A stretch of 64,000 nt of DNA from a virus (Duplodnaviria > Heunggongvirae > Uroviricota > Caudoviricetes): IMG/VR virus record IMGVR_UViG_3300010365_001407, positions 49,463 to 113,462 of that record. The stretch is one strand, 5' to 3'. A program made the translations under genes and the position numbers. Positions 3,465-43,572 of this stretch are shown one piece after another. Every line of letters begins with the position of its first letter. The stretch's first letter is position 1. The notes under the pieces are model-generated. The model made no database searches. It had not been told where the DNA came from and saw only the letters and a program-made list of their open reading frames with translations.

Positions 3465-6233
3465 ATGGCTTTAGTTGTCTTTAGTGAAAGAATAGATTTT
3501 AATTCAATTACTCCTCCAGAACAAGGTGGATATATAGTTGGATATAATATAGAGAATGATTTATTATCACAGATGGATTATCAAGGTATTGTTACTCCAA
3601 TAGGTGGTGTAGGAAGTGCAGGAACATTATTTAGTACATTATCACTAGGTAACACTACTGGTACATATTCTATAGTTTTAGATAGTTCTATAACAAAAGG
3701 AACTAATAAAATATCATTAGATAGTGGTATAGTTTCATTAACAACTGATAATGGTTCTTATGGAGAATCATACTTATATTTGAATTCAGGTAATGTAATT
3801 TTGGGTAATGGTTCCAGTAAAAGTTTTAGAATAGAAAATACAGGTATAACTACTAAATGGTCAGAGACTGATAGACAGATAATTAATACAAACTCATATG
3901 AGTTATTTTTAAATAATTTTGCAACATTACAATTTGGTCAATTATCATCAGGTGCTGGTAGTAAACTATCTGCTTTAATTTCTACCGATAACTCAACAAT
4001 TAGTAATAGTATTGTAAATACAGTTGTAATTGGTGGTCAAAATTTATCAGCAACACAATCTAATTCAGTTTATGTTCCTAACTTGTATATTCAAGATGGT
4101 AAAGTAATAAAAAGTACTAAGGGTACTGGTCAAATTAAAATTACTGAATTAGATATAATAACATCTAACTCTATTGGTAATTTTGCTTTAGTATCATCAA
4201 CTAGTTCAAATGTGTTCACTAAGAATGGTATTATCATAAAGGATAGTGCAACTGCATCAACAAGTCCTAATTTTGATTCTGGTATAACTTATATATCAAC
4301 TAAAAATTCAGGTGCAACTGCCAGTATAAAAAACTCTGTAATTATAGGTGGTAATGGTTTACAAGCCACTCAGGATAATACAGTATATCTTCCTAATGTT
4401 AATATAAATAATTTATATACATTACCATCAACTGATGGTACATCAGATCAGGTTATAAAAACAGATGGTTTAGGAAATTTATCTTGGACAACAGTAGGAG
4501 TTGGTGGAACAGGTGGAACAGGTTCAGGTATAACAAATACTATAACAAAGTGGACAAGTTCTTCAACTTTTGGTAATAGTAATATAACTGATGATGGTAC
4601 AACTATTAATATTAATGATTCATTAATAATAGGTACAAATTCTGTCTATACAAGTAATACATTGAATACAATAATTGGATATAGAACAAACGTATCTATG
4701 GCAGGTGGATTTAATACTGCTATTGGTGTTAATGCATTTAGGAATAATACAACAGGTGGAAATAATATTATTATGGGTAATAATTCACTCTATAATAATT
4801 CAACAGGTAATTTTAATCTTGCAATTGGTAATAACTCACTATATAATAACACAACCGCAGGTTTTAATATAGGAGTTGGACACAATACTTTATATGCAAC
4901 AACAACAGGTGTGGATAATGTTGCAATTGGTTATTTACCATTAAGTAGTAATACAACAGGTTCTAATAATATTTCAATTGGTAAAGCAGCAATGTTATTT
5001 AACACAACAGGTTCTGGTAATGTTGCAATTGGTTGGCAGTCATTACCAAGAAATACAAGTGCAGATAGTACAATTTCAATTGGTAGAAATGCAATGTTTT
5101 ATAGTAGAATAGGGGAACAAAATGTTGCAATTGGTGATGCCACAATGTATTACAATACCTTAGGAGGTTATAATGTTTCTGTTGGATATCAAGCAGCATT
5201 TGAAAATACAACAGGAATATTAACTTTAGGTACATTTTCTGAAGGAAGTGGATATACACCAGGAACACATTCAGGAGTTCAACTTAAATATAATGGTGGT
5301 GGTTTTTTAGATGTTGTTGCAAGTGATTATCCATTAGCAACAATAGTTGTTTCACCAGGAGGTACTGTGAGCTCAGTCACATTAGACACACCAGGACATG
5401 GATTTCAAAATACATCAACTATTCTTGGATGTACTGCAAGTCCAATTGGACCAGGGACTGGATTCACTGTAAGGATAAGTTCATTAATAAGCGGTGAATA
5501 TAATACAATTATTGGTAATGGTGCACTTCGTTATAATACAATAGGTAGTGATAATATAGCAATTGGTAAAAATGCTGGTAATAATACTATATTAGGAACA
5601 AATGTTATATCTAATAATTCTATATTTATAGGTAGTGATACTAGAGCACAGTCAACAGATGAAACTAATCAAATAGTAATAGGTTATAATACAACAGGAA
5701 ATGGATCTAACTCTACTACAATAGGTAATGATAATACATTAAAAACTATCATTAAAGGTAATGTTGGATTTGGATTAACTGGACCAAGTACAAAAGTTGA
5801 TATTTATGCAACTCAATCAGGTGGTGGTTTTAAACTACAAGATACATCAGAAGGACCAGGTTATGTTCTTATATCTGATGTGAATGGTGTTGCAAGTTGG
5901 ACATCTTCAGTTACATCAACCACAGCAATTGATGTTATAACATCAACATCAAGTATTACAACAAATACATTAACAGATGGTGGATATGATCAAAATGGTA
6001 GATGTGTTATTATAAATAATGGTACATATAGTATAAACCTTACTGTTAATTCTTATGACAGATTTACATCAACATATTTAAAACATGGAACTGCAAGTGT
6101 AACATTTGTACAAGGTTCAGGAAGAACACTAATTGATGTTGATGGTACATTTATATTAGATGGTTCTGTTGGTTCAACTGCAACAATAATAAGTTATGGT
6201 ACAACTGATTACTTAAGAGTAAGTAATGCATAA
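3465..6233 (+). CDS. tail-fibre-like structural protein with YadA-head / Hep_Hag-like tandem repeats
   Basis: 922 aa, N/S/T/G-rich. More than 12 tandem units of about 15 aa of the form NTTGxxNxAIGxxAL between aa 400 and 600. Confidence 0.65.
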   Translation: MALVVFSERIDFNSITPPEQGGYIVGYNIENDLLSQMDYQGIVTPIGGVGSAGTLFSTLSLGNTTGTYSIVLDSSITKGTNKISLDSGIVSLTTDNGSYGESYLYLNSGNVILGNGSSKSFRIENTGITTKWSETDRQIINTNSYELFLNNFATLQFGQLSSGAGSKLSALISTDNSTISNSIVNTVVIGGQNLSATQSNSVYVPNLYIQDGKVIKSTKGTGQIKITELDIITSNSIGNFALVSSTSSNVFTKNGIIIKDSATASTSPNFDSGITYISTKNSGATASIKNSVIIGGNGLQATQDNTVYLPNVNINNLYTLPSTDGTSDQVIKTDGLGNLSWTTVGVGGTGGTGSGITNTITKWTSSSTFGNSNITDDGTTININDSLIIGTNSVYTSNTLNTIIGYRTNVSMAGGFNTAIGVNAFRNNTTGGNNIIMGNNSLYNNSTGNFNLAIGNNSLYNNTTAGFNIGVGHNTLYATTTGVDNVAIGYLPLSSNTTGSNNISIGKAAMLFNTTGSGNVAIGWQSLPRNTSADSTISIGRNAMFYSRIGEQNVAIGDATMYYNTLGGYNVSVGYQAAFENTTGILTLGTFSEGSGYTPGTHSGVQLKYNGGGFLDVVASDYPLATIVVSPGGTVSSVTLDTPGHGFQNTSTILGCTASPIGPGTGFTVRISSLISGEYNTIIGNGALRYNTIGSDNIAIGKNAGNNTILGTNVISNNSIFIGSDTRAQSTDETNQIVIGYNTTGNGSNSTTIGNDNTLKTIIKGNVGFGLTGPSTKVDIYATQSGGGFKLQDTSEGPGYVLISDVNGVASWTSSVTSTTAIDVITSTSSITTNTLTDGGYDQNGRCVIINNGTYSINLTVNSYDRFTSTYLKHGTASVTFVQGSGRTLIDVDGTFILDGSVGSTATIISYGTTDYLRVSNA

Positions 6234-7033: not shown

Positions 7034-7119
7034 AAGAGAGCAAGGGAATCGAACCCTAGCCAGTTTCCCGACCGTCACGCTTAGCAGGCGGACCCTATCA
7101 CCATCAAGGTTTACTCTCC
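7034..7119 (-). tRNA. tRNA-Ser (anticodon GCU), class II long variable arm
   Basis: Reverse complement has a 7/7 acceptor stem (GGAGAGT/GCTCTCT with G-U pairs), anticodon loop CUGCUAA, a long variable arm and T-arm GGGTTCGATTCCC. Confidence 0.6.
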
Positions 7120-7128
7120 ATTTTTTAG

Positions 7129-7214
7129 CAGTGAACAAGGGAATCGAACCCTAGCCAGTTTCCCGACCGAACTGCTTTCCAGGCAGACCCTATCACCATC
7201 AAGGTTTACTCACT
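7129..7214 (-). tRNA. tRNA-Ser (anticodon GGA), class II
   Basis: Near-identical scaffold to 7034-7119; anticodon loop CUGGAAA; acceptor AGTGAGT/GTTCACT. Confidence 0.6.
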
Positions 7215-7218
7215 ATTG

Positions 7219-7306
7219 CGGAAGAAGTGAGACTTGAACTCACACGGGTGTTACCCCCAACAGTTTTCAAGACTGCGACCCATAGACCAACTTGGCTTAT
7301 TCTTCC
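7219..7306 (-). tRNA. class II tRNA, anticodon read as UGA (Ser); assignment tentative
   Basis: Perfect 7-bp acceptor GGAAGAA/TTCTTCC, T-arm GTGAG-TTCAAGT-CTCAC, anticodon stem-loop GCAGT-CTTGAAA-ACTGT and a long variable arm. The D-arm is hard to place by eye. Confidence 0.5.
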
Positions 7307-7349
7307 ATATTTTTAATTATACCACTTATTGTACCTTTTGATACTTTTG

Positions 7350-7435
7350 TGGAGAAGTGAGGTATCGAACCCCATGCGAGTAAACGCACCCACAGTTTTC
7401 AAGACTGGGTTTAGCACCTGCTAAATTACTCCTCC
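7350..7435 (-). tRNA. class II tRNA, anticodon loop CTTGAAA (UGA-like); identity tentative
   Basis: Acceptor GGAGGAG/CTTCTCC, T-loop TTCGATA and a 17-nt variable arm. It has the same anticodon loop as 7219-7306, so one of the two may be mis-read. Confidence 0.45.
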
Positions 7436-7442
7436 ATATTTG

Positions 7443-7515
7443 TGATTCCAATAGGATTCGAACCTATATCTGATCGTTCGTAGCGACCTATCCTATCCAA
7501 TTGAACGATGGAACC
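7443..7515 (-). tRNA. tRNA-Arg (anticodon ACG)
   Basis: 73 nt; acceptor GGTTCCA/TGGAATC, anticodon stem GGTCG/CGATC with loop CTACGAA, T-arm TAGGTTCGAATCCTA. Confidence 0.6.
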
Positions 7516-7522
7516 AATAAAA

Positions 7523-7552
7523 AAACCCACAAACTTTGAGGTTTGTGGGTTT
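7523..7552. terminator. bidirectional rho-independent terminator hairpin
   Basis: AAACCCACAAAC-TTTGAG-GTTTGTGGGTTT is a perfect 12-bp stem flanked by A-run and T-run. Confidence 0.6.
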
Positions 7553-7727
7553 CAAATAACTTTTAACTTAAAATTATGAATACACAAGAACCTCACTCAA
7601 TTTACTTGAGCGACTTGAAGAACTTGACGATGTAGTGCTTTGCACTCTCACTATGTGAGTACTTATAATTGTTTTCATAACTTATATATTAAAAATTTAT
7701 TCTTTTGTTTTACTTTTTTACTTTTAG

Positions 7728-7820
7728 TAGTCTGAACAGGAATCGAACCTGTGATGCGCGGAAGATACCCCTACTATATATAGGATCGACTACATAATGT
7801 TACCACTACATTATCAGACT
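7728..7820 (-). tRNA. tRNA-like element with irregular core, possibly Ile(UAU)-like or a pseudo-tRNA
   Basis: Canonical acceptor AGTCTGA/TCAGACT and T-arm ACAGG-TTCGATT-CCTGT, but 93 nt long. About 10 extra nt sit between the D-arm and the only good anticodon-like hairpin (TCCTA-TATATAG-TAGGG), which has A at position 33. Confidence 0.35.
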
Positions 7821-7829
7821 ATTTTTTTG

Positions 7830-7901
7830 TGCGGACTGACGGAATCGAACCGACCTCTTATGGGCTTCAACCATACGCTAAACCGTCTCAGCTAAATCCG
7901 C
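7830..7901 (-). tRNA. tRNA-Phe (anticodon GAA)
   Basis: 72 nt; acceptor GCGGATT/AGTCCGC, anticodon stem TATGG/CCATA with loop TTGAAGC, T-loop TTCGATT. Confidence 0.6.
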
Positions 7902-8678
7902 ATTATATTTTTTTATCCATTTTCTTATAGTGTTATCACTAACACCATATTTTTTACCAGTTGAGACATAGTTTGTTTCTTTTATATCTTTTAATAGTTG
8001 GTATAATGAAGGTCTTTCAACCTTTCTTTGTTTAAATGAATCACATTTAGAACACATTTTAGAACGTTTATATATTTCTATACCACATTCACAATACTTT
8101 TTATTATCTAATAGTTCAAATGTTGGTTTGTTTTCTACTAATCCATTTATATAAAGTATTAAACTGTCAATAAAATACTTTTTAGAATCCTTGTTCAATA
8201 ATTGATACTCACTCCATTTTATTCTAATTATATCCCAACCTAAGTCTTCTAAATATTTATTTCTTCTTTTATCACTTTCAATAATTTTATTATCTAAATA
8301 GTGTTGACTACCATCAACCTCTATATCTATTTTCTTATCTAAAATACAAAAGTCTAATTCGTACAATCCAATTCTGTAGGATTTTGTTATATTAATATTT
8401 TTATCTAAAAAAACCTCAGTAAAATATTTCTCAGGATATGATTCATTTCTACTATGATTTAATAGGTAAGGAACTTTATCAGGATTATTTTTTAAATATT
8501 CTTTTCTACTATTTGATATTTTTTTTCTAGTTTCATCTGATAACTTTCTATTTTTACCAATTTCACTTAATTTACTACATCTAATTTTATAATTTGGATT
8601 TAATTTACAATTTGTAATATGTCCACCAAGTTTTAATCCATTTTCTGTTGTAAATCCACAATACTTACACTCCTTCAT
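7878..8678 (-). CDS. homing-endonuclease-like protein (N-terminal Zn finger, NUMOD3-like motifs, Vsr/DUF559-like PD-(D/E)xK domain)
   Basis: 266 aa; CKYCGF...HITNC, LSDETRKKISNSRKEY, and YELDFCILDKKIDIEVDGSQHY...RRNKYLEDLGWDIIRI. Confidence 0.6.
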   Translation of the reverse strand: MKECKYCGFTTENGLKLGGHITNCKLNPNYKIRCSKLSEIGKNRKLSDETRKKISNSRKEYLKNNPDKVPYLLNHSRNESYPEKYFTEVFLDKNINITKSYRIGLYELDFCILDKKIDIEVDGSQHYLDNKIIESDKRRNKYLEDLGWDIIRIKWSEYQLLNKDSKKYFIDSLILYINGLVENKPTFELLDNKKYCECGIEIYKRSKMCSKCDSFKQRKVERPSLYQLLKDIKETNYVSTGKKYGVSDNTIRKWIKKYNADLAETV

Positions 8679-8754
8679 AATTCAATTATCTTTTCTTTTA
8701 TATATAAATAATTGAACTCCCTCTCCTTAAAAAAGCTGAGTGCTTGTAAATTAG

Positions 8755-8833
8755 TTCCCCCGACTGGGTACGATCCAGTAGTCTGCATATTAAAAGTATG
8801 CGGCTTTCTCCATTTAAGCTACGGGAGAGAATT
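8755..8833. repeat. 79-bp direct repeat, copy 1 (contains tRNA-Lys)
   Basis: Identical to 9152-9231: GTTCCCCCGACTGGGTACGATCCAGTAGTCTGCATATTAAAAGTATGCGGCTTTCTCCATTTAAGCTACGGGAGAGAATT. Confidence 0.9.
8756..8828 (-). tRNA. tRNA-Lys (anticodon UUU) with A54:U58-swapped T-loop
   Basis: Acceptor TCTCCCG/CGGGGGA, D-stem GCTT/AAGC, anticodon stem GCATA/TATGC with loop CTTTTAA, T-arm ACTGG-ATCGTAC-CCAGT. Confidence 0.55.
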
Positions 8834-8838
8834 ATTTG

Positions 8839-8911
8839 GGTGAAAGACGGATCCCGAGACCGCATCTCCTCCTTCACAGGGAGGCATCCTAACCTTTAGA
8901 CGACAATCACC
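8839..8911 (-). tRNA. degenerate tRNA-His-like element (anticodon GUG, G-1/C73), possible pseudogene
   Basis: Perfect anticodon arm CCTCC-CTGTGAA-GGAGG with extra 5' G and discriminator C. Only 5/7 acceptor pairs and a non-canonical T-arm (GCGGT-CTCGGGA-TCCGT). Confidence 0.3.
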
Positions 8912-8920
8912 ATATATCAG

Positions 8921-8991
8921 CACGCCATACAGGACTCGAACCTGTAACACTGGTTTTGGAGACCAGGATGATACCATTTCACCAATGACGT
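8921..8991 (-). tRNA. tRNA-Trp (anticodon CCA)
   Basis: 71 nt; acceptor ACGTCAT/ATGGCGT, anticodon stem CTGGT/ACCAG with loop CTCCAAA, T-arm ACAGG-TTCGAGT-CCTGT. Confidence 0.6.
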
Positions 8992-8998
8992 ATTTTGG

Positions 8999-9072
8999 GT
9001 TGACAGACGGGACTTGAACCCGCAATCCCTTGGCTCACAACCAAGTGCTTTAACCAATTAAGCTACCATCAA
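8999..9072 (-). tRNA. tRNA-His (anticodon GUG)
   Basis: Acceptor TTGATGG/CTGTCAA (two G-U pairs), D-stem GCTT/AAGC, anticodon stem CTTGG/CCAAG with loop TTGTGAG, T-arm GCGGG-TTCAAGT-CCCGT, discriminator C. No encoded G-1. Confidence 0.5.
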
Positions 9073-9074
9073 AG

Positions 9075-9146
9075 TGGAGAGAGTGGGGATCGAACCCACG
9101 ACACCTGCGGCTTCAACACAGTGCTCTACCTCTGAGCTACCTCTCC
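9075..9146 (-). tRNA. tRNA-Phe (anticodon GAA), second copy
   Basis: 72 nt; acceptor GGAGAGG/TCTCTCC, D-stem GCTC/GAGC, anticodon stem CTGTG/CGCAG with loop TTGAAGC, T-arm GTGGG-TTCGATC-CCCAC. Confidence 0.6.
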
Positions 9147-9151
9147 TTTTT

Positions 9152-9231
9152 GTTCCCCCGACTGGGTACGATCCAGTAGTCTGCATATTAAAAGTATGCG
9201 GCTTTCTCCATTTAAGCTACGGGAGAGAATT
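9152..9231. repeat. 79-bp direct repeat, copy 2 (contains the second tRNA-Lys)
   Basis: Identical to 8755-8833. Confidence 0.9.
9153..9225 (-). tRNA. tRNA-Lys (anticodon UUU), duplicate
   Basis: Identical sequence to 8756-8828. Confidence 0.55.
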
Positions 9232-9237
9232 TATTTT

Positions 9238-9702
9238 TTAAATCTTAATATTCATATTATTAATAAATTGTAACATGCCCCAATTTTGTTGTTTTGAGGT
9301 TCTTATTCTATGACAATTGGCACACCTAACATCACATTTATTTATCTCATTTTTTATTTTAACTAAATCAACACCTTCACTAATCATATCACATAAATTA
9401 CCAATCTTTTCAACATTATCTTTGTGATCAAATTCTAATACTATTGGATTATTTTCACCACAATCAACACAAGGATTTTCCAAAAGATAATTATAAATAT
9501 ATTCAATTCTTTCAATTTTTCTTTTTCTTTTTCTTTCATTTATCATAGGTTTCATTATTTCTTTATTGACTTTATAATAATTATGTGAATTATTCTTACT
9601 ACAAACTCTACATATAGAATTCAAACCATCTTTTCTAACTTTATTTTTATTAAACTCTGTTTTATTTTTAACTTCTTTACATGTACCACAATACTTTTTC
9701 AT
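9238..9702 (-). CDS. HNH homing endonuclease
   Basis: 154 aa; CGTC...CRVC zinc knuckle and C-terminal EFDHKDN...CANCH HNH motif. Confidence 0.7.
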   Translation of the reverse strand: MKKYCGTCKEVKNKTEFNKNKVRKDGLNSICRVCSKNNSHNYYKVNKEIMKPMINERKRKRKIERIEYIYNYLLENPCVDCGENNPIVLEFDHKDNVEKIGNLCDMISEGVDLVKIKNEINKCDVRCANCHRIRTSKQQNWGMLQFINNMNIKI

Positions 9703-9706
9703 AATT

Positions 9707-9737
9707 GACTTTTAATTTATTATATATATTAAAAGTC
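9707..9737. promoter_or_regulatory. perfect 10-bp inverted repeat flanking a TATATATA core
   Basis: GACTTTTAAT-TTATTATATAT-ATTAAAAGTC lies immediately upstream (minus strand) of the HNH gene start and overlaps a promoter-like motif. Possible operator, or a terminator for the tRNA array. Confidence 0.35.
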
Positions 9738-9765
9738 AGTGAGTTCCTTCAAATAAAAAACCCAA

Positions 9766-9795
9766 ACTTTTTGTAAAGTTCGGGTTTCTGTCTAT
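9766..9795. terminator. terminator-like hairpin
   Basis: AACCCAAACTTT-TTGT-AAAGTTCGGGTT, an imperfect 12-bp stem. Confidence 0.4.
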
Positions 9796-10032
9796 GTTTT
9801 ATTATTCTCTTATCTATATAACTAACTATTTAAAGTTACATCTGAGAATGACATACTCATACATCCGAACTTGTGGCTAAACCACTTGAACGACTTACTA
9901 AAGCTTGTATGTTTGAAATTTGTTCTCATTATTGTATATATTAATTTATTATTGTTCCTTTTTGTTATTTTGTTATTTTTATAGTACAAATATATAAAAA
10001 GTTTATATATCTACCTAATTTTTATGCTATTT

Positions 10033-10293
10033 TTATTCAAATTTTAAACTATGTTTCATAAAGTCACTTACATTAAACAATTTAACTTGCTTATTTCTTG
10101 TAGTTGTGTATTTAATCTCATTATATTCATATACATTAATATATCTAATACCACGTTCAAATTGGTATTCTGCTATACCATATGCTAAAGTTACTTTACC
10201 ATGTGGTCCATTATATCCTTTTAAAAATACCATCATATTTTCAATATCTTTACTTGAAGATAATTCAACTTGTATGTATGTCTGTTTTTTCAT
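10033..10293 (-). CDS. hypothetical protein
   Basis: 86-aa ORF with the promoter-like motif AAATATATAAAAAGTTTTACTTTCTACCTAATTT immediately upstream at 10296-10335. Confidence 0.5.
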   Translation of the reverse strand: MKKQTYIQVELSSSKDIENMMVFLKGYNGPHGKVTLAYGIAEYQFERGIRYINVYEYNEIKYTTTRNKQVKLFNVSDFMKHSLKFE

Positions 10294-10446
10294 AGTGTAA
10301 ATATATAAAAAGTTTTACTTTCTACCTAATTTAATGTTATTTTTATCTACAAAAAATGATTATCGGTTAACCAATTTTCACTCATAATTTTTAAATTTTA
10401 AGCTTTAGTCCCCATATTAAATATCCTACAAATATTCCTAATAAAA

Positions 10447-10665
10447 ATGATCCCATTTTTGTTTTTAATTTTTTATATATACTTTATGCCAGTACGCTCA
10501 AAATCACAACTTAAATACATCTTTGCAATGCGTAAGAAGTACAAATCAAAAAAGAATGCACCCAAAGATAAAAAATGGGTATTCAATGATGAATGGACTA
10601 AAGGTGTTGATACAGGTGGTATGCCAACTAAAGTAAAAGATTTTAAATCATTTAATGTTGATTAA
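10447..10665 (+). CDS. hypothetical small basic protein
   Basis: 72-aa ORF with a hydrophobic N-terminus; weak support. Confidence 0.3.
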   Translation: MIPFLFLIFYIYFMPVRSKSQLKYIFAMRKKYKSKKNAPKDKKWVFNDEWTKGVDTGGMPTKVKDFKSFNVD

Positions 10666-11066
10666 GCTAATGCTTCTTTAATTACTTCTGATACTACTTT
10701 TCTGTCAACTTGTAAAGTTGCAAACTCTTTCATAATACCACCAACATTAGTTACACCAGATGCTACAAGTTCATTTACTTTAGTAACAATATCCTCTCTT
10801 GTTAAAGCAGCTGGAAGTAAAGCTTCTACAATAGTTAATTGTAATTTAGACTCTTCATCACCACTTGTTGCAATAACCTCATTCAAAGATTTTGCAGTTT
10901 TGTTAAGGATTTTGATTACTTCTGCATCAGAAAGACAATCAACTCCTGTATTTTTTTCAATAGTTTGGATCTCTCCTTTTACTACAGAAAGTAAATTTTT
11001 TGCTACTGCATTTCTTTCTTTGAAAGCAGTCATGTAGTCTTTGCTAATTTTTTCTTTTAAACTCAT
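10662..11066 (-). CDS. GatB/YqeY-domain protein
   Basis: 134 aa; MSLKEKISKDYMTAFKERNAVAKNLLSVVKGEIQ...LLPAALTREDIVTKV...ASGVTNVGGIMKEF matches the YqeY / GatB C-terminal-domain family end to end. Confidence 0.7.
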   Translation of the reverse strand: MSLKEKISKDYMTAFKERNAVAKNLLSVVKGEIQTIEKNTGVDCLSDAEVIKILNKTAKSLNEVIATSGDEESKLQLTIVEALLPAALTREDIVTKVNELVASGVTNVGGIMKEFATLQVDRKVVSEVIKEALA

Positions 11067-13220: not shown

Positions 13221-13562
13221 AATCAAATCATTGATTCGATCATTTATTTCATATAATAAACCCATACATTCTCTTTTCAAATCCTTTAGTCTATTAAAAT
13301 CACTGACACTAATTGGTTTATTTAGAGCATCATCTATACCTCTTATTTCTAATTCAATATTGTCTCTGATTAAACCAATCTCAAATAGAATATCTCCTTT
13401 GATTTCATTTATTAATAAACTAAAATAAGGATTACTCATAAGTCTTTCTTTGTATGTAGATACATTAAAACTTTTGATAATCCTTTTTAAGTTTTTTATT
13501 ACTTCTTCTTCACTACCTGAACTATGGAGTTTTTCAAAGAAGTCTTCTATGTTATGTTTCAT
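13212..13562 (-). CDS. hypothetical protein
   Basis: 116-aa ORF overlapping the start of the downstream homing-endonuclease gene. Confidence 0.45.
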   Translation of the reverse strand: MKHNIEDFFEKLHSSGSEEEVIKNLKRIIKSFNVSTYKERLMSNPYFSLLINEIKGDILFEIGLIRDNIELEIRGIDDALNKPISVSDFNRLKDLKRECMGLLYEINDRINDLILL

Positions 13563-14428
13563 GTTTTTAAATCTCTTTTAACTTTATAAATAAGTGATTG
13601 GCTAAATCCAGTATTTTCTTTTATCTTTTTAATATCTTGTCCCTCAATAAGTAGATTTTGTATAATGTTATATTTATCACATTTTAATGTTCTATCAACC
13701 ACTCTATCCCATTTTCTTTTCATTATAGGTAAATTTAGAGACAATGCTCTATTCTTAATTTTAAGAACTACTTTATTTTTAGTTATACATATTTTTGAAC
13801 ATCCATCAGGTGATATATAAAAATTCTTTTTTGATGATGTTAGTATATAATATGCTTCTTCTAAAAAATATCCCCATGAAGAATCACATTTAAGATATAA
13901 TAAACCCTTTTTACTTATACAACCATCACCATCTATAAATCCAATCATCATGCTAAATAGTTGGTCATTGGTTATGTTATAAGGTATTTTTACTGGATTC
14001 TTGGTTTTATTAGACAACCAATTAAAGTCATTAGATAATTTACTCACACTTTTTCTATCTGAAATTACAAGTCTTATATCATTTTTATACTCATATTTGC
14101 ATACTTTTCCTATATGTTCTTCAATTTTTAAAATATATTCTTTATCTTTTATTGATAAGTTTATCTGAATGTTGGATTTTTTGTATATATGACCATCAGC
14201 AAGTATAAAACCTATCCAATAACAAGTTATATTATCAGTGTAATCAATTATTTTTGAATATTTTGAGTTATTTTTTGATTCATTAGAACCTTTTTTTATT
14301 TTATTTAAACAAGCAATTTTTTGTATATAGTTCCAAGAAAGATTTGTATCTTTAATTATTTCATCTTTAGATTTTTTATTATAATTTGATTTCAAATAAT
14401 CAATCAATTTTATTTTAGATGGTTTCAT
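13559..14428 (-). CDS. LAGLIDADG homing endonuclease, two-motif single chain
   Basis: 289 aa; YWIGFILADGHI and MMIGFIDGDGCI LAGLIDADG motifs, HTH-like tail; promoter-like motif at 14430-14458. Confidence 0.75.
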   Translation of the reverse strand: MKPSKIKLIDYLKSNYNKKSKDEIIKDTNLSWNYIQKIACLNKIKKGSNESKNNSKYSKIIDYTDNITCYWIGFILADGHIYKKSNIQINLSIKDKEYILKIEEHIGKVCKYEYKNDIRLVISDRKSVSKLSNDFNWLSNKTKNPVKIPYNITNDQLFSMMIGFIDGDGCISKKGLLYLKCDSSWGYFLEEAYYILTSSKKNFYISPDGCSKICITKNKVVLKIKNRALSLNLPIMKRKWDRVVDRTLKCDKYNIIQNLLIEGQDIKKIKENTGFSQSLIYKVKRDLKT

Positions 14429-14458: not shown

Positions 14459-14893
14459 TTAAACCATACCTCTTTTCATTTCCCTTTCTATATCTTTCTT
14501 TTTAATATCTTCTCTTTTATTCCATAATTTTTTACCAGTTGCCACACCAATCTTAATCTTAATTCTGTTTCTTTTTATAAAAACACTTAATGGTATAGCT
14601 GTTGTTCCTTTATCTTGTAGTTTTCTTTCAATTCTATTGATTTCTTTTCTGCTTAAAAGTAACTTCTTATCCCTGTTCTCTTCATGTTTTGTTAATGGAT
14701 GTGATGATTTATATCTTGCCACATTCATATTTTTGAGCCATACTTCACCATCTTTTAAGTAAATAAAAGAATCTGCTAAAGTAACATTACCCATCCTGAT
14801 TGACTTTACTTCACTTCCAACCAATACAACACCTGCTTCAAATTCCTCATGTATGTGGAATTCATAATATGCTTTTCTATTATTTACTATCAT
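14459..14893 (-). CDS. smpB: SsrA-binding protein SmpB
   Basis: 144 aa; NRKAYYEFHIHEEFEAGVVLVGSEVKSIRMGNVTLADSFIYLKDGEVWL...HPLTKHE...KLLLSRKEINRIERKLQDKG matches bacterial SmpB along its whole length. Confidence 0.8.
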   Translation of the reverse strand: MIVNNRKAYYEFHIHEEFEAGVVLVGSEVKSIRMGNVTLADSFIYLKDGEVWLKNMNVARYKSSHPLTKHEENRDKKLLLSRKEINRIERKLQDKGTTAIPLSVFIKRNRIKIKIGVATGKKLWNKREDIKKKDIEREMKRGMV

Positions 14894-15386
14894 ATTTTAT
14901 ATCTATTTGTGATCCACCTTCACGGTTTTTCATTACTCTTACTCTATCTTCTCTGATTATACCTACAAAGTCAGCCATGTACAATCCTGTGTTACCACCA
15001 CTGAAATTATATTCATCATTACCTGTAGTAGTATATATTGGACAAGTGATTAATAGTTTGAAATTACTATCTACTAATTCATTTGCTATTCTTTGAAGAG
15101 AATTTTTTATTACATTATACCTACTTGTTTCACCTCTACCCATCATAAAATTATTTATGTCTAATAAGAAGTGACTTGGTGTTTCAGTTTTATCATTCAA
15201 TACTGAATCAATTTTAGAATCTCTAATATAAGAAAGCATAGAAAAAGATGAATTTATTTCTGGTAACTCAATATGAGAAACTTTAGAAATAATTTCATCT
15301 TTAATTCTTTCTTCTTTGAAAGTGTAACCTAATAGAGAAATATTTGATTTATTAATTAATTCAAATAAATATTCTGTGGGTTCCAT
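14880..15386 (-). CDS. hypothetical protein
   Basis: 168-aa ORF between smpB and the thioredoxin gene. Confidence 0.5.
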   Translation of the reverse strand: MEPTEYLFELINKSNISLLGYTFKEERIKDEIISKVSHIELPEINSSFSMLSYIRDSKIDSVLNDKTETPSHFLLDINNFMMGRGETSRYNVIKNSLQRIANELVDSNFKLLITCPIYTTTGNDEYNFSGGNTGLYMADFVGIIREDRVRVMKNREGGSQIDIKYDSK

Positions 15387-15390
15387 TAAA

Positions 15391-15711
15391 TTAGTTTAAG
15401 TGAGTGTTAATCAATTCCGCTAATTTTTCTTTAGTTGTCATTCCTGTACTTCTTTCAACAATCTCTCCATTTTTGAAAAGAATTAATGTAGGAATATTTC
15501 TAACTCCTAATTCAACAAGAATGTCTCTATTCTCATCAGCATTTAATTTACCAACTTGTAATTGCTCCATAAACTCTAAAGAGATTTGATCCACAATTGG
15601 TGAAATTTGAAGGCACGGCGCACACCATTTTGCCCAAACATCTATCAAAACCAAATCATTTTTAATAAAACTTTCATAGGTTGAGGGTGTTAAATCTACT
15701 GCATTTGTCAT
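15391..15711 (-). CDS. trxA: thioredoxin
   Basis: 106 aa; WAKWCAPCLQISP contains the CxxC active site (WCAPC here, canonical WCGPC), and the overall length and layout fit thioredoxin. Confidence 0.75.
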   Translation of the reverse strand: MTNAVDLTPSTYESFIKNDLVLIDVWAKWCAPCLQISPIVDQISLEFMEQLQVGKLNADENRDILVELGVRNIPTLILFKNGEIVERSTGMTTKEKLAELINTHLN

Positions 15712-15783
15712 AATTTTATATTTGTTTTATAATTATATAAAAGATGTATAAAAAGTTTATTTTTATACAGGGTGAACACCACT

Positions 15784-15799
15784 TTTTTATATATACTAT
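15784..15799 (+). promoter_or_regulatory. TTTTTTATATATACTAT promoter-like motif abutting the ATG at 15800
   Basis: Conserved motif family. Confidence 0.35.
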
Positions 15800-16522
15800 A
15801 TGGAAAATAATAATACAGAAATAGCATACATATATGCCTTATTAGATCCAAGAGATAATGAGGTTAGATATATAGGAAAAACAACACAACCAAAGAATAG
15901 ATTATCAGGTCACATAAGAGAATGTAAAAATATAAAATCTCTACATTATAGAGCAAAATGGATTAGATCTCTCTTAAAGAAAGAACTATTACCTATAATA
16001 AAATTTCTAAAGATATGTCCTTTATCTGATTTTGTTAAATATGAAACAGAGTATATACAAATATATAAAAATGATAAATTAACCAATTCTGATGAAACTG
16101 GTAGTGGTAATACAGGTAGAAAAAAAGAAGTATTGGATAGACAATCAAAATCTAGTGGTAGAATAGTTTATCAATACAATTTAGATGGTAAATTTATTAA
16201 AGAATATCAATCTGTTAGATTTGCTGCAGATTGTCTAAATTTATCACATTCAAATATATCAAGGTCTTGTAATGGAATATCTAAACATGCAGGTGGATTT
16301 ATATTTAGATATGAAAAAGTAAATGTTGAAAAATTAGAAAATCCAAATGCAGTAAAGAAATCAGTCATAGAAATAGATACTTTAGGTAAAGAAATAGGAA
16401 GATGGAACTCACTTATGGATTGTAGTAGAGATACTGGCTTAAGAAATGAGGCAATTAGCAAACTTTGTAATAAAAGATATGGATCCAAATCAGTAGGTGG
16501 TAGATATTTTAAGTTTGAATGA
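15800..16522 (+). CDS. GIY-YIG homing endonuclease
   Basis: 240 aa; IAYIYALLDPRDNEVRYIGKTTQPKNRLSGHIRE GIY-YIG motif at the N-terminus; basic C-terminal DNA-binding region. Confidence 0.7.
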   Translation: MENNNTEIAYIYALLDPRDNEVRYIGKTTQPKNRLSGHIRECKNIKSLHYRAKWIRSLLKKELLPIIKFLKICPLSDFVKYETEYIQIYKNDKLTNSDETGSGNTGRKKEVLDRQSKSSGRIVYQYNLDGKFIKEYQSVRFAADCLNLSHSNISRSCNGISKHAGGFIFRYEKVNVEKLENPNAVKKSVIEIDTLGKEIGRWNSLMDCSRDTGLRNEAISKLCNKRYGSKSVGGRYFKFE

Positions 16523-16523
16523 A

Positions 16524-16550
16524 AAAACCCACATCTTTGAGGGTTTTTAA
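16524..16550. terminator. terminator-like hairpin between convergent genes
   Basis: AAAAACCCACATCTTTGAGGGTTTTTAA. Confidence 0.4.
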
Positions 16551-16783
16551 TTCAAATCTAAGTATTTTTTGAAATTTGTAATAAATTCACTTTCATCTAC
16601 AATATCACTTGCTATAAGATTTTTATCAATGAAAAAGGAATACATAAACTTATCATCTAAATCATCTAGATCATCTAGTATTAGTATTTTATTTTCACTA
16701 AATAATAAAGTTATTTTATTCTTTTCAATAAAATAATCTATTGGTTTAAACTCACTAATTATATTCTCAGTATTCATATTCAT
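16547..16783 (-). CDS. hypothetical acidic protein
   Basis: 78-aa ORF. Confidence 0.4.
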   Translation of the reverse strand: MNMNTENIISEFKPIDYFIEKNKITLLFSENKILILDDLDDLDDKFMYSFFIDKNLIASDIVDESEFITNFKKYLDLN

Positions 16784-18039
16784 TATATTGTGAAAAGTTT
16801 ATCTATAACTTCTTTATCATCTGTTTCAGATATTTCTTCTAGTATTCTACTTACTTTACCTTTTGTATCATTGACAATTTCTTTTCTAACAGATAATTCA
16901 AGTAGTAATTTAGTTTGTTCATCTAACTCAATATCTTTATCTAACTTATTCTTTTCTAATACAGATATTGCAATTATAGGGTCATCCTTATACACTTCAA
17001 GAAGTTTCTTTATAAGATTAATCTGTTCTGATAACTTTAGACCTTTTAGATTAGATATTGCATTAGGTGCATTGTAAACAAATCTTGAAAGAAGTTTAAT
17101 ATCTTCTTCACTTACTTCTTTATCAACATAATCTGGTGTATCATAAAAATAATGTAAGTGTTCCCAAATTAATTGTAGATTTTGATTTTTATTACTATAA
17201 ATATTTCTAATATAGAATAAATAGTTATCAGCTTTTAAATCTGATAGGTTTTTATCTTCAAATACTCTTTGATTACTAGATACTAACTTCCAAAGTTTAA
17301 CATCTTTGTTTTGTGAAACTCTGAGCCATTCAATACATTGAACATCTTTCTGTAAATAAAAGAACTCACTTAATCTATCAATGTATTTAGCAAATACCTC
17401 TAAATATCTTTCTTGAAATCTAACTTTATATGGACTTAAATGAACATTTTCACTTAAAGCATATTGTAAGATATTTAATTCAAAGTCAGTAAGAGTAGCA
17501 TTTAATTCATCTGCTTTTTTGATTATTCTTAATACTGTATGAGAAGGTGTCTTAACATTAGTAATTCTTAATATTCCTGTCTCTAAGAATTTTTCAAATT
17601 CATCAGTCCAGTAATATTCATCATTATCAATTGAATATCCAATTGCTGTACAATTAATATCAAAAGAATCAATTACCACTCTTGGTTCTGGTGAATTAGA
17701 TTGATACTTTATATAATTGAATATACCATCTTTAGTAGATTCAGTTATACAATAAAAATCTTTTTCTTTAGTCATAAATGCAATACCATTATAATCTTCA
17801 TACCAAATATCTTCTTTGGTAGAGTGTTCATAAAGTGTTTGAGATTTATCTTGTATTAATTTTTCTAATATACCATCAAATAAAAAAACATCAATATCAT
17901 TGATGATGGCTTTGTTACCTGATACTTCTTCCCAGATTAGGTTTGCAATAGATCCACCAGCAATAAAACCACTTTGAGGAAGACCCCAAGTGGTTTTAAT
18001 TCTATCAATTGCTTTTTCTGCTAATTGTTTTACATTCAT
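16783..18039 (-). CDS. pol-beta-superfamily nucleotidyltransferase (class-I-CCA-like or CD-NTase-like head), function unknown
   Basis: 418 aa; N-terminal GFIAGGSIANLIWEEVSGNKAIINDIDVFLF fits the hG[GS]...[DE]h[DE]h nucleotidyltransferase signature. Confidence 0.5.
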   Translation of the reverse strand: MNVKQLAEKAIDRIKTTWGLPQSGFIAGGSIANLIWEEVSGNKAIINDIDVFLFDGILEKLIQDKSQTLYEHSTKEDIWYEDYNGIAFMTKEKDFYCITESTKDGIFNYIKYQSNSPEPRVVIDSFDINCTAIGYSIDNDEYYWTDEFEKFLETGILRITNVKTPSHTVLRIIKKADELNATLTDFELNILQYALSENVHLSPYKVRFQERYLEVFAKYIDRLSEFFYLQKDVQCIEWLRVSQNKDVKLWKLVSSNQRVFEDKNLSDLKADNYLFYIRNIYSNKNQNLQLIWEHLHYFYDTPDYVDKEVSEEDIKLLSRFVYNAPNAISNLKGLKLSEQINLIKKLLEVYKDDPIIAISVLEKNKLDKDIELDEQTKLLLELSVRKEIVNDTKGKVSRILEEISETDDKEVIDKLFTI

Positions 18040-18227
18040 TATTTTTTCTTTTTAATGTTCATTATCTCTGCCATATGGTCATTGATAACTCTTCTTGTTG
18101 TGTTTTCCTTATAAGTTTCCTTTACCTCTTTATTTTCAGGTGTATCATCTTTCTTTATTAAGATTTTATATACAGCACCAGTTATTAGTACTGCTATGAA
18201 TAAACTTGGTATAATGTATTTTGCCAT
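18039..18227 (-). CDS. small single-pass membrane protein
   Basis: 62 aa; hydrophobic N-terminal helix IIPSLFIAVLITGAVYKILI; start overlaps the stop of the upstream ORF. Confidence 0.4.
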   Translation of the reverse strand: MAKYIIPSLFIAVLITGAVYKILIKKDDTPENKEVKETYKENTTRRVINDHMAEIMNIKKKK

Positions 18228-18243
18228 AGTTTTTTATTATTAT

Positions 18244-18888
18244 CTATAAAAACATTTCATCTATCTCTGAAAACTCTTTCTTAGATTGTTCCATTAGAAT
18301 ATGACGACCATTTCTAATTTGAGATTTTATAGTAGATAAGTTTTTATCTAATTTATCTGCTATGTCTTTATATGACATTCTGTCAATCTCTCTCATTTCA
18401 ATAACTGTCTTATAAGGTTCTTTCAATTCTGAGATATGTTTCTTCAAAACATCTGCTTTTTTACTATACACATCATAAACTGCTTCATTACTTTCAGTTT
18501 CTTGTATAAAGTCTTTTAGAGTAGTTCCTTCATCATCAAATTCAATGTCTAATGAAATACTTCTGTTTTCTATTTTTAAGTCTTGTAATGCAAGATTTCT
18601 TGCTATTGTAAATAACCAAGTTGAAAATTGAGCTTTCTCTTTATCATACTTGTCTATTTTTTCCAGTGCTACTATGAAAGAGTCTGTAGAAATATCCTCT
18701 GCTTTTTGCACATCCTTACATATCTTAGATATGAAGTAAATTAATTTTGGGTAGTATTTTGAGTAAAGTGTTGAAAAGTCTTTACCAGTTCTTTCTTTAA
18801 AAATTACTTCTTGTTCACTGAACAAGCTCATTGGGGCTGCTGTTGATACCATTAATTGCTTTTTAGTTTTTTGTTGACTTGCTGTCAA
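18244..18888 (-). CDS. sigma-70-family (ECF-like) RNA polymerase sigma factor
   Basis: 214 aa; region-2-like FSTWLFTIARNLALQDLK and region-4 HTH MSYKDIADKLDKNLSTIKSQIRNGRHIL. Confidence 0.65.
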   Translation of the reverse strand: MTASQQKTKKQLMVSTAAPMSLFSEQEVIFKERTGKDFSTLYSKYYPKLIYFISKICKDVQKAEDISTDSFIVALEKIDKYDKEKAQFSTWLFTIARNLALQDLKIENRSISLDIEFDDEGTTLKDFIQETESNEAVYDVYSKKADVLKKHISELKEPYKTVIEMREIDRMSYKDIADKLDKNLSTIKSQIRNGRHILMEQSKKEFSEIDEMFL

Positions 18889-22568: not shown

Positions 22569-23312
22569 ATGAAAAGGAAAGGTAATGGATATTGGACATA
22601 TGAAAGATGTAGAGAAGAAGCTTTAAAATATATTAGTTCATCTGAATTACAAAGAAATTGTAGTAGTGTATATAATAAAATCTATATTAATGGTTGGAAT
22701 GAACTTACTCAACATTTTATTAAAATTGGGAATAGATATAAAAGATTGGTATATGTTTATGAATTTAGTGATAATTTTTTCTATGTAGGTCTTACAGGTA
22801 ATATCAATAGAAGAAGAAAACAACATATTAATGATATTGATAGTTCTGTCTATAAACATTCAAAATTAACAAAGTTAAATCCAAATTTATTGATAGTATC
22901 TGATTATATTGATGTTGATAATTCAGTAGAATTGGAAAAAATCTATTTTGATAAATATATTAAAAATGGTTGGATTTCACTTAATAAAGTAAAAACTGGT
23001 AATATTGGTTCATGTAATATAAAATGGAACAAAGAAGAATGTATTAAAGAGAGTTTGAAATATTCAAAGATAATAGATTATCAGAGAAATTCTAAAAGTT
23101 CATATAACTCAGCACTTAAAAATGGTTGGGTTGATGAAATATGTTCTCATATGATAAGAAGAAAGTGTAAAAATGGTGAATATAATGATAAAAACAAATG
23201 TTTTATTGAAGCAAGTAAATACAAAAGTAAGTCAGAGTTTCATAAAAATAATTGGAGTGCCTGGAATTACTCAAAAAAGAATGGTTGGTTGTATGATTTT
23301 TATGATAACTAA
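22569..23312 (+). CDS. GIY-YIG domain (homing-endonuclease-like) protein
   Basis: 247 aa; RLVYVYEFSDNFFYVGLTGNINRRRKQH GIY-YIG core with repeated W-containing modules either side. Confidence 0.55.
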   Translation: MKRKGNGYWTYERCREEALKYISSSELQRNCSSVYNKIYINGWNELTQHFIKIGNRYKRLVYVYEFSDNFFYVGLTGNINRRRKQHINDIDSSVYKHSKLTKLNPNLLIVSDYIDVDNSVELEKIYFDKYIKNGWISLNKVKTGNIGSCNIKWNKEECIKESLKYSKIIDYQRNSKSSYNSALKNGWVDEICSHMIRRKCKNGEYNDKNKCFIEASKYKSKSEFHKNNWSAWNYSKKNGWLYDFYDN

Positions 23313-23361: not shown

Positions 23362-24528
23362 ATGGATTTTACAAATAAATATAATGATAAAGAGAAAAAG
23401 AAAAATGGAGTTTTTTACACTCCAAAAGACATAGCTGAGTTTATGGCTAGTAAAAGTAAGTTTGATGATGGTAAAGGTATATGGTTGGATCCTTGTTGTG
23501 GATTAGGTATATTAGCCATATCACTGGCATCAATTCAAGATGATCCTATTGATTTTATAGAAAATAGACTCATAATCAATGATATGGATAAATTTCAATT
23601 AGATATAGCCTTAAATAATTTTAAAGAAAAATTTGGTGTTATTCCTAAAAGTTTCAATGAGGATTTTTTATCTTATGATTTTAAGTGTGATTATGTTATA
23701 ATGAATCCACCTTACTTCAAATATAAAGATAGTGATATATATGCATATTTTATAGAAAAGGTTTGTAATATATCAAATGGATTTATTAGTATAAATCCCA
23801 TTTCATTTACTAATGGTTCAAAATTTAAAAAGATTAGAAAATCTATTTTAGATTTTAGTTCTATAAATTTGTATCATTTTGACAATATACCAGGTCATAT
23901 TTTTGATGATGCTGATGTTAGAGTTTCTATAATTGTATCAAGTAATGTAGAAAATAATAGAAAGACAACTACTCAAATTAGATGGCAATCAAAGAAGAGG
24001 GAAGAAATGATTAAAAATTTGGATAGTAATTTAGATGAAGCTATTTTTACAGAAGATATTTTTTATAAAACATCACCAAATACAACACATCTTATACATG
24101 ATAATACATTATCAAATTATGTGGTTAATAAATCAGATTATCCAATTTATATCACTAGTCTTACAAGATATTTTATAACAGGATCAACTAAAAAATTAGA
24201 TAGAAATGGTCAGATAGAGATTTTTCTAAAAGATGAAGATTCATATAATAAAGCTTTAATTATGATAAATAGTTCATATCTTTATTGGTGGTGGAGAACA
24301 TCAGATAGTTCAATGTCTTTAACTAAAAGAACTTTATTATCTTTACCATGGATAGATTTCAAATATGAAAATGATATAATATCTGAGGTATTGGAAAGTG
24401 AGAATATAAATAAGGTGTATAAAATGAATGCTGGGAAATCACAGGAAAATATTAAACATAGTAAAGAATTGGTTGCCAAATTAAATTCATTATTTATACC
24501 AGGGGACTTTATTAAACTTCAAGATTAA
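23362..24528 (+). CDS. N6-adenine DNA methyltransferase, gamma class (TaqI/Eco57I-like)
   Basis: 388 aa; motif X GVFYTPKDIAEFMA, motif I LDPCCGLGILAISLA, motif IV VIMNPPYF, then a variable TRD-like C-terminal half. Confidence 0.75.
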   Translation: MDFTNKYNDKEKKKNGVFYTPKDIAEFMASKSKFDDGKGIWLDPCCGLGILAISLASIQDDPIDFIENRLIINDMDKFQLDIALNNFKEKFGVIPKSFNEDFLSYDFKCDYVIMNPPYFKYKDSDIYAYFIEKVCNISNGFISINPISFTNGSKFKKIRKSILDFSSINLYHFDNIPGHIFDDADVRVSIIVSSNVENNRKTTTQIRWQSKKREEMIKNLDSNLDEAIFTEDIFYKTSPNTTHLIHDNTLSNYVVNKSDYPIYITSLTRYFITGSTKKLDRNGQIEIFLKDEDSYNKALIMINSSYLYWWWRTSDSSMSLTKRTLLSLPWIDFKYENDIISEVLESENINKVYKMNAGKSQENIKHSKELVAKLNSLFIPGDFIKLQD

Positions 24529-43005: not shown

Positions 43006-43572
43006 TTAGTAATTAGTTTTTACATATTCTATTAAATCAGAAAGATTATCTGAATTATAAATATAAGGATGTTTGTCTAATAAAGATTCTAAAAACTTAA
43101 CTCTACCTTCTTTATAGGCATCATTACCATAAGATTTATATTCTTCATGAATTCCTTTTTCCCAATCAAGTAACTGGTCATAGTTTCCATTAGTAATAAC
43201 ATTCATATCAAATTGAATAAAATTACTTGATAGTCTGTTACTTGGTTCATGAGTTTTAGTATCTAAAATCATTTGATTAATATCTTGAATATCTTTATTC
43301 AATTCTTGACAACATTCTAAAAAGAATTGTGCTGATTTTTCTTCATTGTCCTGTTTCATTGGATCATAAACACAATCATGAAAAAGTGCAGTGATTAATA
43401 ACTTTTCATATTCTTTTTCAGAGAAAGCATGAGTGTTTTCATTTATTTGGTCAATCAAATCATTTAAGTGATTAAGTGTATGATAAGAACGATGTGATTC
43501 ATTCCACATTGCTAAAACTGTGTTAACATCACATTTAATGTTCCATTTGTTTAATAATTCTTGTAAATTCAT
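43006..43572 (-). CDS. HD-domain phosphohydrolase
   Basis: 188 aa; HTLNHLNDL...LLITALFHDCVYDP carries the H...HD metal-binding motif. Confidence 0.6.
   Translation of the reverse strand: MNLQELLNKWNIKCDVNTVLAMWNESHRSYHTLNHLNDLIDQINENTHAFSEKEYEKLLITALFHDCVYDPMKQDNEEKSAQFFLECCQELNKDIQDINQMILDTKTHEPSNRLSSNFIQFDMNVITNGNYDQLLDWEKGIHEEYKSYGNDAYKEGRVKFLESLLDKHPYIYNSDNLSDLIEYVKTNY

Follow-up and report, generated by a model that had tools for sequence, protein, structure and literature searches.

What does a phage enzyme with the signature of a polymerase beta (Pol-beta)-superfamily nucleotidyltransferase (NTase) do when it is encoded among genes for transfer RNAs (tRNAs) and ribosome rescue? This question is raised by an open reading frame (ORF) of 418 amino acids (aa) plus stop, running from ATG to stop according to the ORF listing, on the minus strand of a 64,000-nucleotide (nt) stretch of DNA from a virus of the class Caudoviricetes (IMG/VR record IMGVR_UViG_3300010365_001407, positions 49,463 to 113,462). 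In the following, this whole stretch is referred to as the window and the ORF product as the window NTase. An earlier note, made from the sequence letters, had left its role unclear and had listed as candidates a CCA-adding or tRNA-repair enzyme, a poly(A)-type polymerase and a cGAS/DncV-like enzyme used in counter-defence. The protein can be firmly assigned to the Gad2 family (Gabija anti-defence 2), with a head and neck similar to those of class II tRNA nucleotidyltransferases. As to function, we tentatively lean towards a catalytically competent, template-independent Gad2-family enzyme that would add nucleotides to the 3' ends of tRNA- or transfer-messenger RNA (tmRNA)-like molecules, a reading on which our own opinion is almost evenly divided and in which substrate, nucleotide and counter-defence role are what we infer.

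Membership in the Gad2 family

The window NTase is the product of a genuine gene and not of a chance ORF. A word-indexed search returned 855 homologues, many of them from contigs of 100-656 kb, and an exhaustive profile search yielded 940 clusters at 50% identity (E<=1e-3); the public-source names seen for the family all read 'hypothetical protein'. In the phage collection, the only relatives stem from the uncultured phages LR745206 and LR756502 (634 and 642 kb), with 45-49% protein identity for the NTase and ~70% DNA identity to the window over a large neighbouring gene pair. Both belong to a group of >630-kb megaphages together with Mar_Mega_1, which has 50 tRNAs, a tmRNA and no known host. 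Among 185,579 species-representative bacterial and archaeal genomes, no close relative was detected by scan patterns that reach close relatives only.

The family model PF26128, named Gad2, was precomputed for P0001, a homologue 99% identical to the window NTase, and for most of the 120 homologues listed among the 855; P0107, P0185 and P0199 are unmarked (E<=1e-5), and the match is given as 'weak' for P0046, P0150 and P0221. A direct BLASTP comparison of Gad2 with the window NTase is marginal (E 0.011, ~20% identity), with GG, DxD and FD in register. For profile comparisons, verified Gad2 was combined with eight homologues from the supplementary table of its discovery paper. Using hhalign, a 43-sequence alignment of the megaphage family matched the Gad2 homologues with 97.0% probability (E 1.1e-10), residues 22-218 corresponding to residues 25-201 of Gad2; a shallow family alignment gave 93%, and the method is insensitive against single sequences (8.6% for Gad2 alone, 0.1% for E. 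coli CCA alone). The nine-sequence Gad2 hidden Markov model (HMM) scored the window NTase with 24.0 bits (conditional E 1.1e-9) as its sole match among 158 ORF fragments of the window, the runner-up reaching 5.3 bits. The Gad2 HMM (195.8 bits) and an HMM of the megaphage family (29.2 bits) both recognize gp049 of Aeromonas phage 2L372D, which thus bridges the two groups.

The kinship is confined to the N-terminal half: the alignment ends at residue 218 of 418, and the C-terminal halves are not detectably related. In the distant relatives P0242, P0243, P0250 and P0256 (565-617 aa), the first 230-250 residues are common and are followed by a C-terminal PcfJ-like domain (PF14284). Because the C-terminal halves do not align and distant relatives carry other modules, the shared unit is the head-neck module, to which variable C-terminal domains are joined; the helical C-terminal domain of the window NTase is found only in this megaphage family.

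Catalytic residues and fold

Twelve positions are invariant in 43 relatives that range down to 22% identity, namely P21, G24, G28, D48, D50, Y83, N108, F126, D127, N129, R171 and K175, and P165 is nearly so. They include the elements expected of a Pol-beta-superfamily enzyme: an hG[GS] motif, a [DE]h[DE]h motif and a third carboxylate (D127, in F126-D127 followed by N129), which the earlier note had not contained. Since the NTase glycine, both metal-binding aspartates and the third carboxylate are all invariant, the family is, as judged from conservation, almost certainly enzymatically active. The superfamily assignment itself, originally based on a GGS...NDIDVF signature, is borne out by the fold and by the three carboxylates; translated in six frames, the window contains the combined pattern [AG]GG[SAT][IVL]-x(8-20)-D[IVL]D[IVLF] just once. 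The AlphaFold model (predicted local distance difference test, pLDDT, 76.8) has the alpha-beta NTase fold, whose absence had been named as evidence against the assignment. A helical region follows, as predicted, albeit a shorter one than the about 350 aa proposed: residues 58-118 form a beta-rich insertion within the head domain, and it is the stretch from ~165 to 418 (~250 aa) that is mostly helical.

The structural neighbours of the model include the Aquifex A-adding enzyme 3wfo (8.6), the CC-adding enzyme 4wby (8.4), TENT5B (8.4), the Arabidopsis, Bacillus and human CCA enzymes (8.0, 8.0 and 7.0), E. coli poly(A) polymerase (7.8) and the DUF925 head domain 2la3 (6.7). The close structural relatives all act on RNA 3' ends; the fold neighbours are class II CCA-, A- and CC-adding enzymes and poly(A) polymerase, not the class I enzymes with which the earlier note had suggested a comparison. 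The best viral neighbour is a 347-aa protein of phage 2L372X, a sister of 2L372D, equal in length to 2L372D gp049. At the sequence level, neither the window NTase nor its family profile has a significant match in the PDB, and PHROGs, PADLOC (CBASS cyclases included) and NCBIfam gave no significant match to the window NTase. PF06042 (NTP_transf_6) comes close at the N-terminus, with 24.1 bits at a gathering cutoff of 25, and the relatives P0017 and P0026 reach 25.1 and 25.0 bits.

When the head-neck regions of the megaphage family were aligned by MAFFT with those of Gad2 homologues and of E. coli CCA and PcnB, the columns of G28-G29, D48/D50, D127, L157, P165 and R171 proved invariant. Of class II motif A (GGxVRD...DxD), GG and DxD align and the VRD part is not conserved (S-I-A in the window NTase). 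In motif B, S125-F126-D127 is aligned to the R-R-D of E. coli CCA and PcnB; in motif D, P165 falls on the P of EDP and R171 on the R of LRxxRF, the E-D columns being gaps where the window sequence reads K-T-P-S-H-T. Both the change from RRD to x-F-D and the loss of the motif D E-D are common to the megaphage family and Gad2. Class II enzymes use RRD to recognize the ribose of the nucleotide to be added and EDxxR as a protein template for selecting C and A; without these elements, the canonical selection of CCA is not possible for the window NTase. By its motifs the protein is thus a relative of the class II enzymes, not a member, and its head and neck are a stripped-down class II tRNA-nucleotidyltransferase/poly(A)-polymerase module.

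These features bear on three of the alternatives. A canonical CCA-adding enzyme could mature the tRNAs of the phage itself, 12 of the window's 13 tRNA genes having no encoded 3' CCA (only tRNA-His appears to carry one), and the class II fold of head and neck would suit such a role. The distribution among megaphages points the same way: canonical class II enzymes occur in Lak phages, in a 735-kb phage and in LR756508, and no match to the window NTase came from any of these phages in the phage-collection search. LR745206 and LR756502, the two closest complete megaphages of the collection, carry the NTase family and are not among the best 40-60 of ~440-490 canonical class II matches; the Lak phages and the 735-kb phage are among them and have no member of the family. 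A complementary distribution of the two enzymes is thus possible, as a lead only. Nevertheless, a canonical enzyme is highly improbable: motif B reads x-F-D, the E-D of motif D is deleted, the helical body and tail domains for holding tRNA were not found, and at E<=1 none of the NCBIfam models for CCA or PcnB is matched by the window NTase or by three relatives; E. coli CCA as a positive control matches nine. Pfam, too, yielded no CCA or PcnB match (E<=1-10 over both libraries). The host enzyme, moreover, is able to add CCA, and phages 4MG and KpS8 encode both a Gad2 homologue and, ~41 kb away, a canonical tRNA nucleotidyltransferase; these enzymes are therefore not interchangeable.

An enzyme resembling poly(A) polymerase, which would change the stability of host or phage RNAs by tailing them, agrees with the structural relationship but is no more than a candidate. 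We consider it very unlikely because the PcnB models that the E. coli CCA control did match are not matched by the window NTase, no PcnB-type RNA-binding C-terminal region was found and the gene context contains no pointer to mRNA decay. A cGAS/DncV-like NTase (CD-NTase) producing cyclic oligonucleotides, finally, shares with the window NTase the Pol-beta signature only; as PADLOC gives no match and no CD-NTase is found among the structural neighbours, this candidate has next to no chance of being correct, although the counter-defence idea attached to it survives in spirit through the Gad2 family.

The C-terminal domain has invariant residues of its own among closer relatives (R278-N279, G333/K335/E338-Q339 and R385-K386). 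The tail behind it ends with an aromatic residue in the final four positions in 170 of 209 full-length relatives (e.g. ...NNNDIWMF, ...DDDISWLF, ...DNLPF); such acidic/aromatic ends are reminiscent of SSB and T7 gp2.5, whose C-terminal tips dock onto partner proteins, and some Paenibacillus Gad2 homologues end in ...PIF. The coordinates of all elements are given in Table 1.

Table 1. Elements of the window NTase, its neighbours and a possibly associated gene (positions in the window)
Feature	Position	Strand	Evidence or remark
Complete ORF, Gad2-family NTase	16783..18039	-	ORF listing; 855 homologues; PF26128 hits on relatives
Head (catalytic) domain, residues 1-160	17560..18039	-	Contains family-specific beta-hairpin insertion ~58-118 with invariant Y83, N108
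hG[GS] motif, I26-A-G-G-S30	17950..17964	-	G28 invariant, G29 at least 90% in 43 relatives
Metal-binding DxD motif, N47-D-I-D-V-F52	17884..17901	-	D48, D50 invariant
Third-carboxylate strand, S125-F-D-I-N129	17653..17667	-	F126, D127, N129 invariant; class II motif B counterpart
Neck helix, T164-P-S-H-T-V-L-R-I-I-K-K175	17515..17550	-	Counterpart of class II motif D; E-D of EDxxR deleted
Gad2-homologous region, residues 22-218 (head plus neck)	17386..17976	-	hhalign; Gad2 HMM
Family-specific, mostly helical C-terminal domain, residues 219-400	16840..17385	-	
Disordered acidic tail, residues 401-418, ending ...DKLFTI	16786..16839	-	Net charge -5; pLDDT <50
Sigma-70-type factor, upstream of NTase	18244..18888	-	Pfam Sigma70_r2, r4_2; upstream in all 27 syntenic loci
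62-aa hydrophobic ORF, stop overlapping NTase start (TAATG)	18039..18227	-	Variable; in some loci only, absent from L014
Phage thioredoxin, ancestral downstream neighbour of NTase	15391..15711	-	Pfam Thioredoxin 2.4e-24; 0-74 nt after NTase in most syntenic loci
Conserved 168-aa protein between thioredoxin and SmpB	14880..15386	-	Most syntenic loci; overlaps SmpB start by 14 nt
Phage SmpB (tmRNA-binding ribosome-rescue factor), last gene of conserved block	14459..14893	-	Pfam SmpB 2.2e-52
GIY-YIG/NUMOD homing endonuclease gene in 1.04-kb insertion	15800-16522	+	
Acidic 78-aa ORF in 1.04-kb insertion	16547-16783	-	
188-aa HD-like protein, possibly associated	43006..43572	-	phmmer E 1e-58 to 1e-67 against L031/L032/L034/L036 neighbours

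Gene neighbourhood

In 27 of 37 related loci (numbered with the prefix L), the genes for the sigma factor, the NTase, thioredoxin, the 168-aa protein (not in every case) and SmpB are arranged in this order on one strand. The NTase still adjoins or overlaps SmpB at NTase identities to the window of just 25% (L011) and 30% (L012), the overlap occurring at 25%. The 168-aa protein has no match in Pfam, PADLOC or NCBIfam. Both junctions of the NTase ORF in the window are TAATG overlaps. Compared with L014 and L015, the DNA of which is 91-92% identical, the window contains an insertion of 1.04 kb (15739-16775) that separates the otherwise adjacent NTase and thioredoxin genes. The 78-aa ORF, which is coupled to the NTase stop, was considered as a partner of the NTase and rejected, being part of this insertion and thus absent from these close relatives. 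Directly downstream of SmpB lies a LAGLIDADG homing endonuclease gene (13559-14428, minus strand).

The remaining ten loci, which lack this block, offer informative surroundings of another kind. In L032 and L036, a DraRnl-type ATP-dependent RNA ligase (TIGR02306, 255.6 bits, cutoff 151) precedes the NTase, and in L031, L032, L034 and L036 an HD-like protein of 183-185 aa is encoded immediately downstream of it; the complete order in L032 is RNA ligase, a 172-aa ORF, SIR2, NTase and HD-like protein, the SIR2-family gene (5277-6002, Pfam 1.8e-41) overlapping the NTase start. Unlike in these four loci, the HD-like gene of the window lies 25 kb from the NTase; H31, H35, H65-D66 and D104 of its product are invariant in the alignment, and the Pfam HD match is weak (E ~1e-3). 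A guanylate-kinase-like P-loop protein and a metallophosphoesterase are encoded near the NTase in L006, a P-loop protein in L039, and one relative has a Lar restriction-alleviation gene at a distance of 3 kb.

Cultured phages add two further settings. The Gad2 homologue of Klebsiella phage KpS8 follows an array of 15 tRNA genes, with just an endonuclease VII gene in between. In the Pectobacterium jumbo phage CBB, the Gad2 homologue is located two genes past an HD protein, 1.5 kb before a T4-type RNA ligase 1 and 3.3 kb before a polynucleotide kinase/phosphatase, none of the three being more than 4.3 kb away from it.

Proposed function

If the window NTase acts on RNA 3' ends, as we tentatively assume, it could do so in the following manner: With two metal ions bound at D48, D50 and D127, the enzyme would activate a 3'-OH, which would then attack the alpha-phosphate of a nucleoside triphosphate. 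The most likely acceptor would be the 3' end of a tRNA-like RNA, be it a phage or host tRNA or tmRNA. Once such ends are restored or re-tailed, translation and ribosome rescue may persist during infection, possibly also under active host defence nucleases. A tRNA/tmRNA-type end is favoured because the close structural relatives act on RNA 3' ends and because five separate gene-neighbourhood settings indicate translation RNAs and RNA repair: the blocks with SmpB and with RNA ligase plus HD-like protein, the surroundings with kinase and phosphoesterase, the tRNA array of KpS8 and the RNA-repair cluster of CBB. The lack of an encoded CCA in 12 of the window's 13 tRNA genes also speaks for it. Of the earlier CCA-adding or tRNA-repair proposal, the CCA-adding part has fallen, whereas the link to tRNA, drawn from gene context, is the best supported candidate function. 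A counter-defence purpose is plausible, given the homology to Gad2.

Several observations weigh against this assignment. The nucleotide-selecting class II motifs B and D are missing, and the protein is acidic (net charge -11 for the head and -3 for residues 181-400) and has no tRNA-binding body or tail. Synteny inside one phage lineage may be inherited and not functional. Two further cultured phages with Gad2 homologues show hypothetical neighbours only, and in 4MG and KpS8 the canonical enzyme is present as well. A conserved NTase-HD pair across phages was considered and discarded, the HD protein of CBB not being homologous to the megaphage HD-like protein. The sole characterised tRNase of the OLD family cuts in the anticodon stem, after nucleotides 27-29 (OLD preprint), and damage of this kind would not be repaired by a 3'-end transferase; the idea that Gad2 repairs OLD-type tRNase damage, whose cuts are not at the 3' end, was dropped, having no direct support. 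The mechanism of Gad2 is still listed as not elucidated, and Gabija is presently described as acting on DNA ends (February 2026 review).

These points lead to the main rival, a Gad2-type anti-defence enzyme with a target other than RNA, which we regard as somewhat unlikely. Against a Gabija-like system, consisting of an OLD-family nuclease plus a helicase, such an enzyme could extend or cap the 3' ends of phage DNA, nucleotidylate a host protein or generate a nucleotide product that holds a nucleotide-sensing nuclease off. Gad2 itself is a protein of 400 aa, for which AlphaFold suggested a nucleotidyltransferase domain; phage SPbetaL7 becomes Gabija-sensitive on Gad2 knockout, and a homologue from a Brevibacillus prophage blocks Gabija (Gad2 discovery paper). 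The homology to this genetically proven inhibitor spans the whole catalytic module, Gabija is described as a sensor of DNA ends, a Lar restriction-alleviation gene lies near one relative, and an acidic protein is a poor fit to nucleic-acid binding. On the other hand, the C-terminal half is wholly unlike Gad2, so that target recognition may differ; the nearest structural relatives all work on RNA 3' ends, and the genes found repeatedly nearby are those for SmpB, tRNAs, RNA ligases and polynucleotide kinase instead of DNA-end or anti-restriction genes.

Addition to tRNA- or tmRNA-like 3' ends, the reading preferred here, could also be carried further: the Gad2 family as a whole, including the anti-Gabija Gad2, might be a distinct class II-like branch that rebuilds or re-tails tRNA/tmRNA 3' ends alongside RNA ligases, end-healing enzymes and SmpB. 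We consider this generalization quite unlikely. If it were true, Gabija-type defence would act at least in part by damaging translation RNAs, as has been shown for the related OLD nuclease, and an enzyme counteracting this damage would be built into the ribosome-rescue operon of megaphages. Damage to translation RNAs is reportedly also caused by the PARIS defence.

Source genome

The window has ~26% G+C and encodes, besides 13 tRNA-like genes and SmpB, YqeY, thioredoxin, a sigma-70-type factor, an NAD-dependent DNA ligase and several homing endonucleases. Nine of the genes in the tRNA array (7035-9226, minus strand) were found by ARAGORN and four more by Rfam, one of them tRNA-Sec-like (7351-7435). 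A 94-nt tRNA (7727-7820) has an apparent four-base anticodon, cgat, and an ORF with restriction-endonuclease-like domains (DUF559/MTES_1575; 7878-8678) is situated inside the array. No tmRNA gene was found in the window by ARAGORN or Rfam, although Mar_Mega_1 is reported to have one. In L001 and L002, YqeY is followed by a tyrosyl-tRNA synthetase gene; in the window (9238-11066), just a 154-aa ORF separates YqeY from the tRNA array, without a synthetase-sized ORF, no search for synthetases having been made. Just past the DNA ligase gene, a second GIY-YIG endonuclease gene (22569-23312, plus strand) adjoins an N6-adenine DNA methyltransferase-like gene (N6_Mtase/Eco57I-type; 23362-24528, plus strand).

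Significance and comparison with known systems

Gabija is a very common defence of bacteria, and few inhibitors besides Gad2 are known. The sequence comparisons place the catalytic module of Gad2 in a large family, where it is joined to a different, megaphage-specific C-terminal domain. Family members of unrelated phages are repeatedly encoded beside tRNA genes, RNA ligases, polynucleotide kinase or SmpB, which suggests a testable mechanism for Gad2, namely nucleotide addition at the 3' ends of tRNA or tmRNA. If this proves true, the translation-related functions encoded by the largest known phages would gain a further component.

Among known systems, the class II tRNA nucleotidyltransferases and poly(A) polymerase (PF01743; 3h37, 3wfo, 4wby, 1miv, 3aql) differ from the window NTase in that the latter lacks RRD, the E-D of motif D, body and tail, has no HD domain in its own polypeptide and is not matched by a CCA or PcnB HMM. 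The NTP_transf_6/DUF925 proteins (PF06042; nuclear magnetic resonance structure 2la3, 'CCA-adding enzyme head domain') are bacterial and consist of a single domain, with a length of ~190 aa, and their family model matches just residues 20-63 of the window NTase. The TENT5/FAM46 non-canonical poly(A) polymerases (6jyj) are eukaryotic and show 10% identity, with no detectable sequence relationship. By contrast, Gad2 of Bacillus phage SPbetaL7 and of the Brevibacillus laterosporus prophage is, like the window NTase, a phage-encoded protein of ~400 aa with a homologous head-plus-neck module. The two have A-G-G, D-x-D, F-D, P and R in common, D48/D50 corresponding to D45/D47 of Gad2 and F126-D127 to F106-D107, and they have the same derived losses relative to the class II enzymes, x-F-D instead of RRD and a motif D without E-D. 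They differ in the C-terminal half, which in the window NTase is helical and unrelated to that of Gad2, and in their genomic setting: the window NTase is located in the sigma/thioredoxin/SmpB block of a >600-kb phage and not in an anti-Gabija locus.

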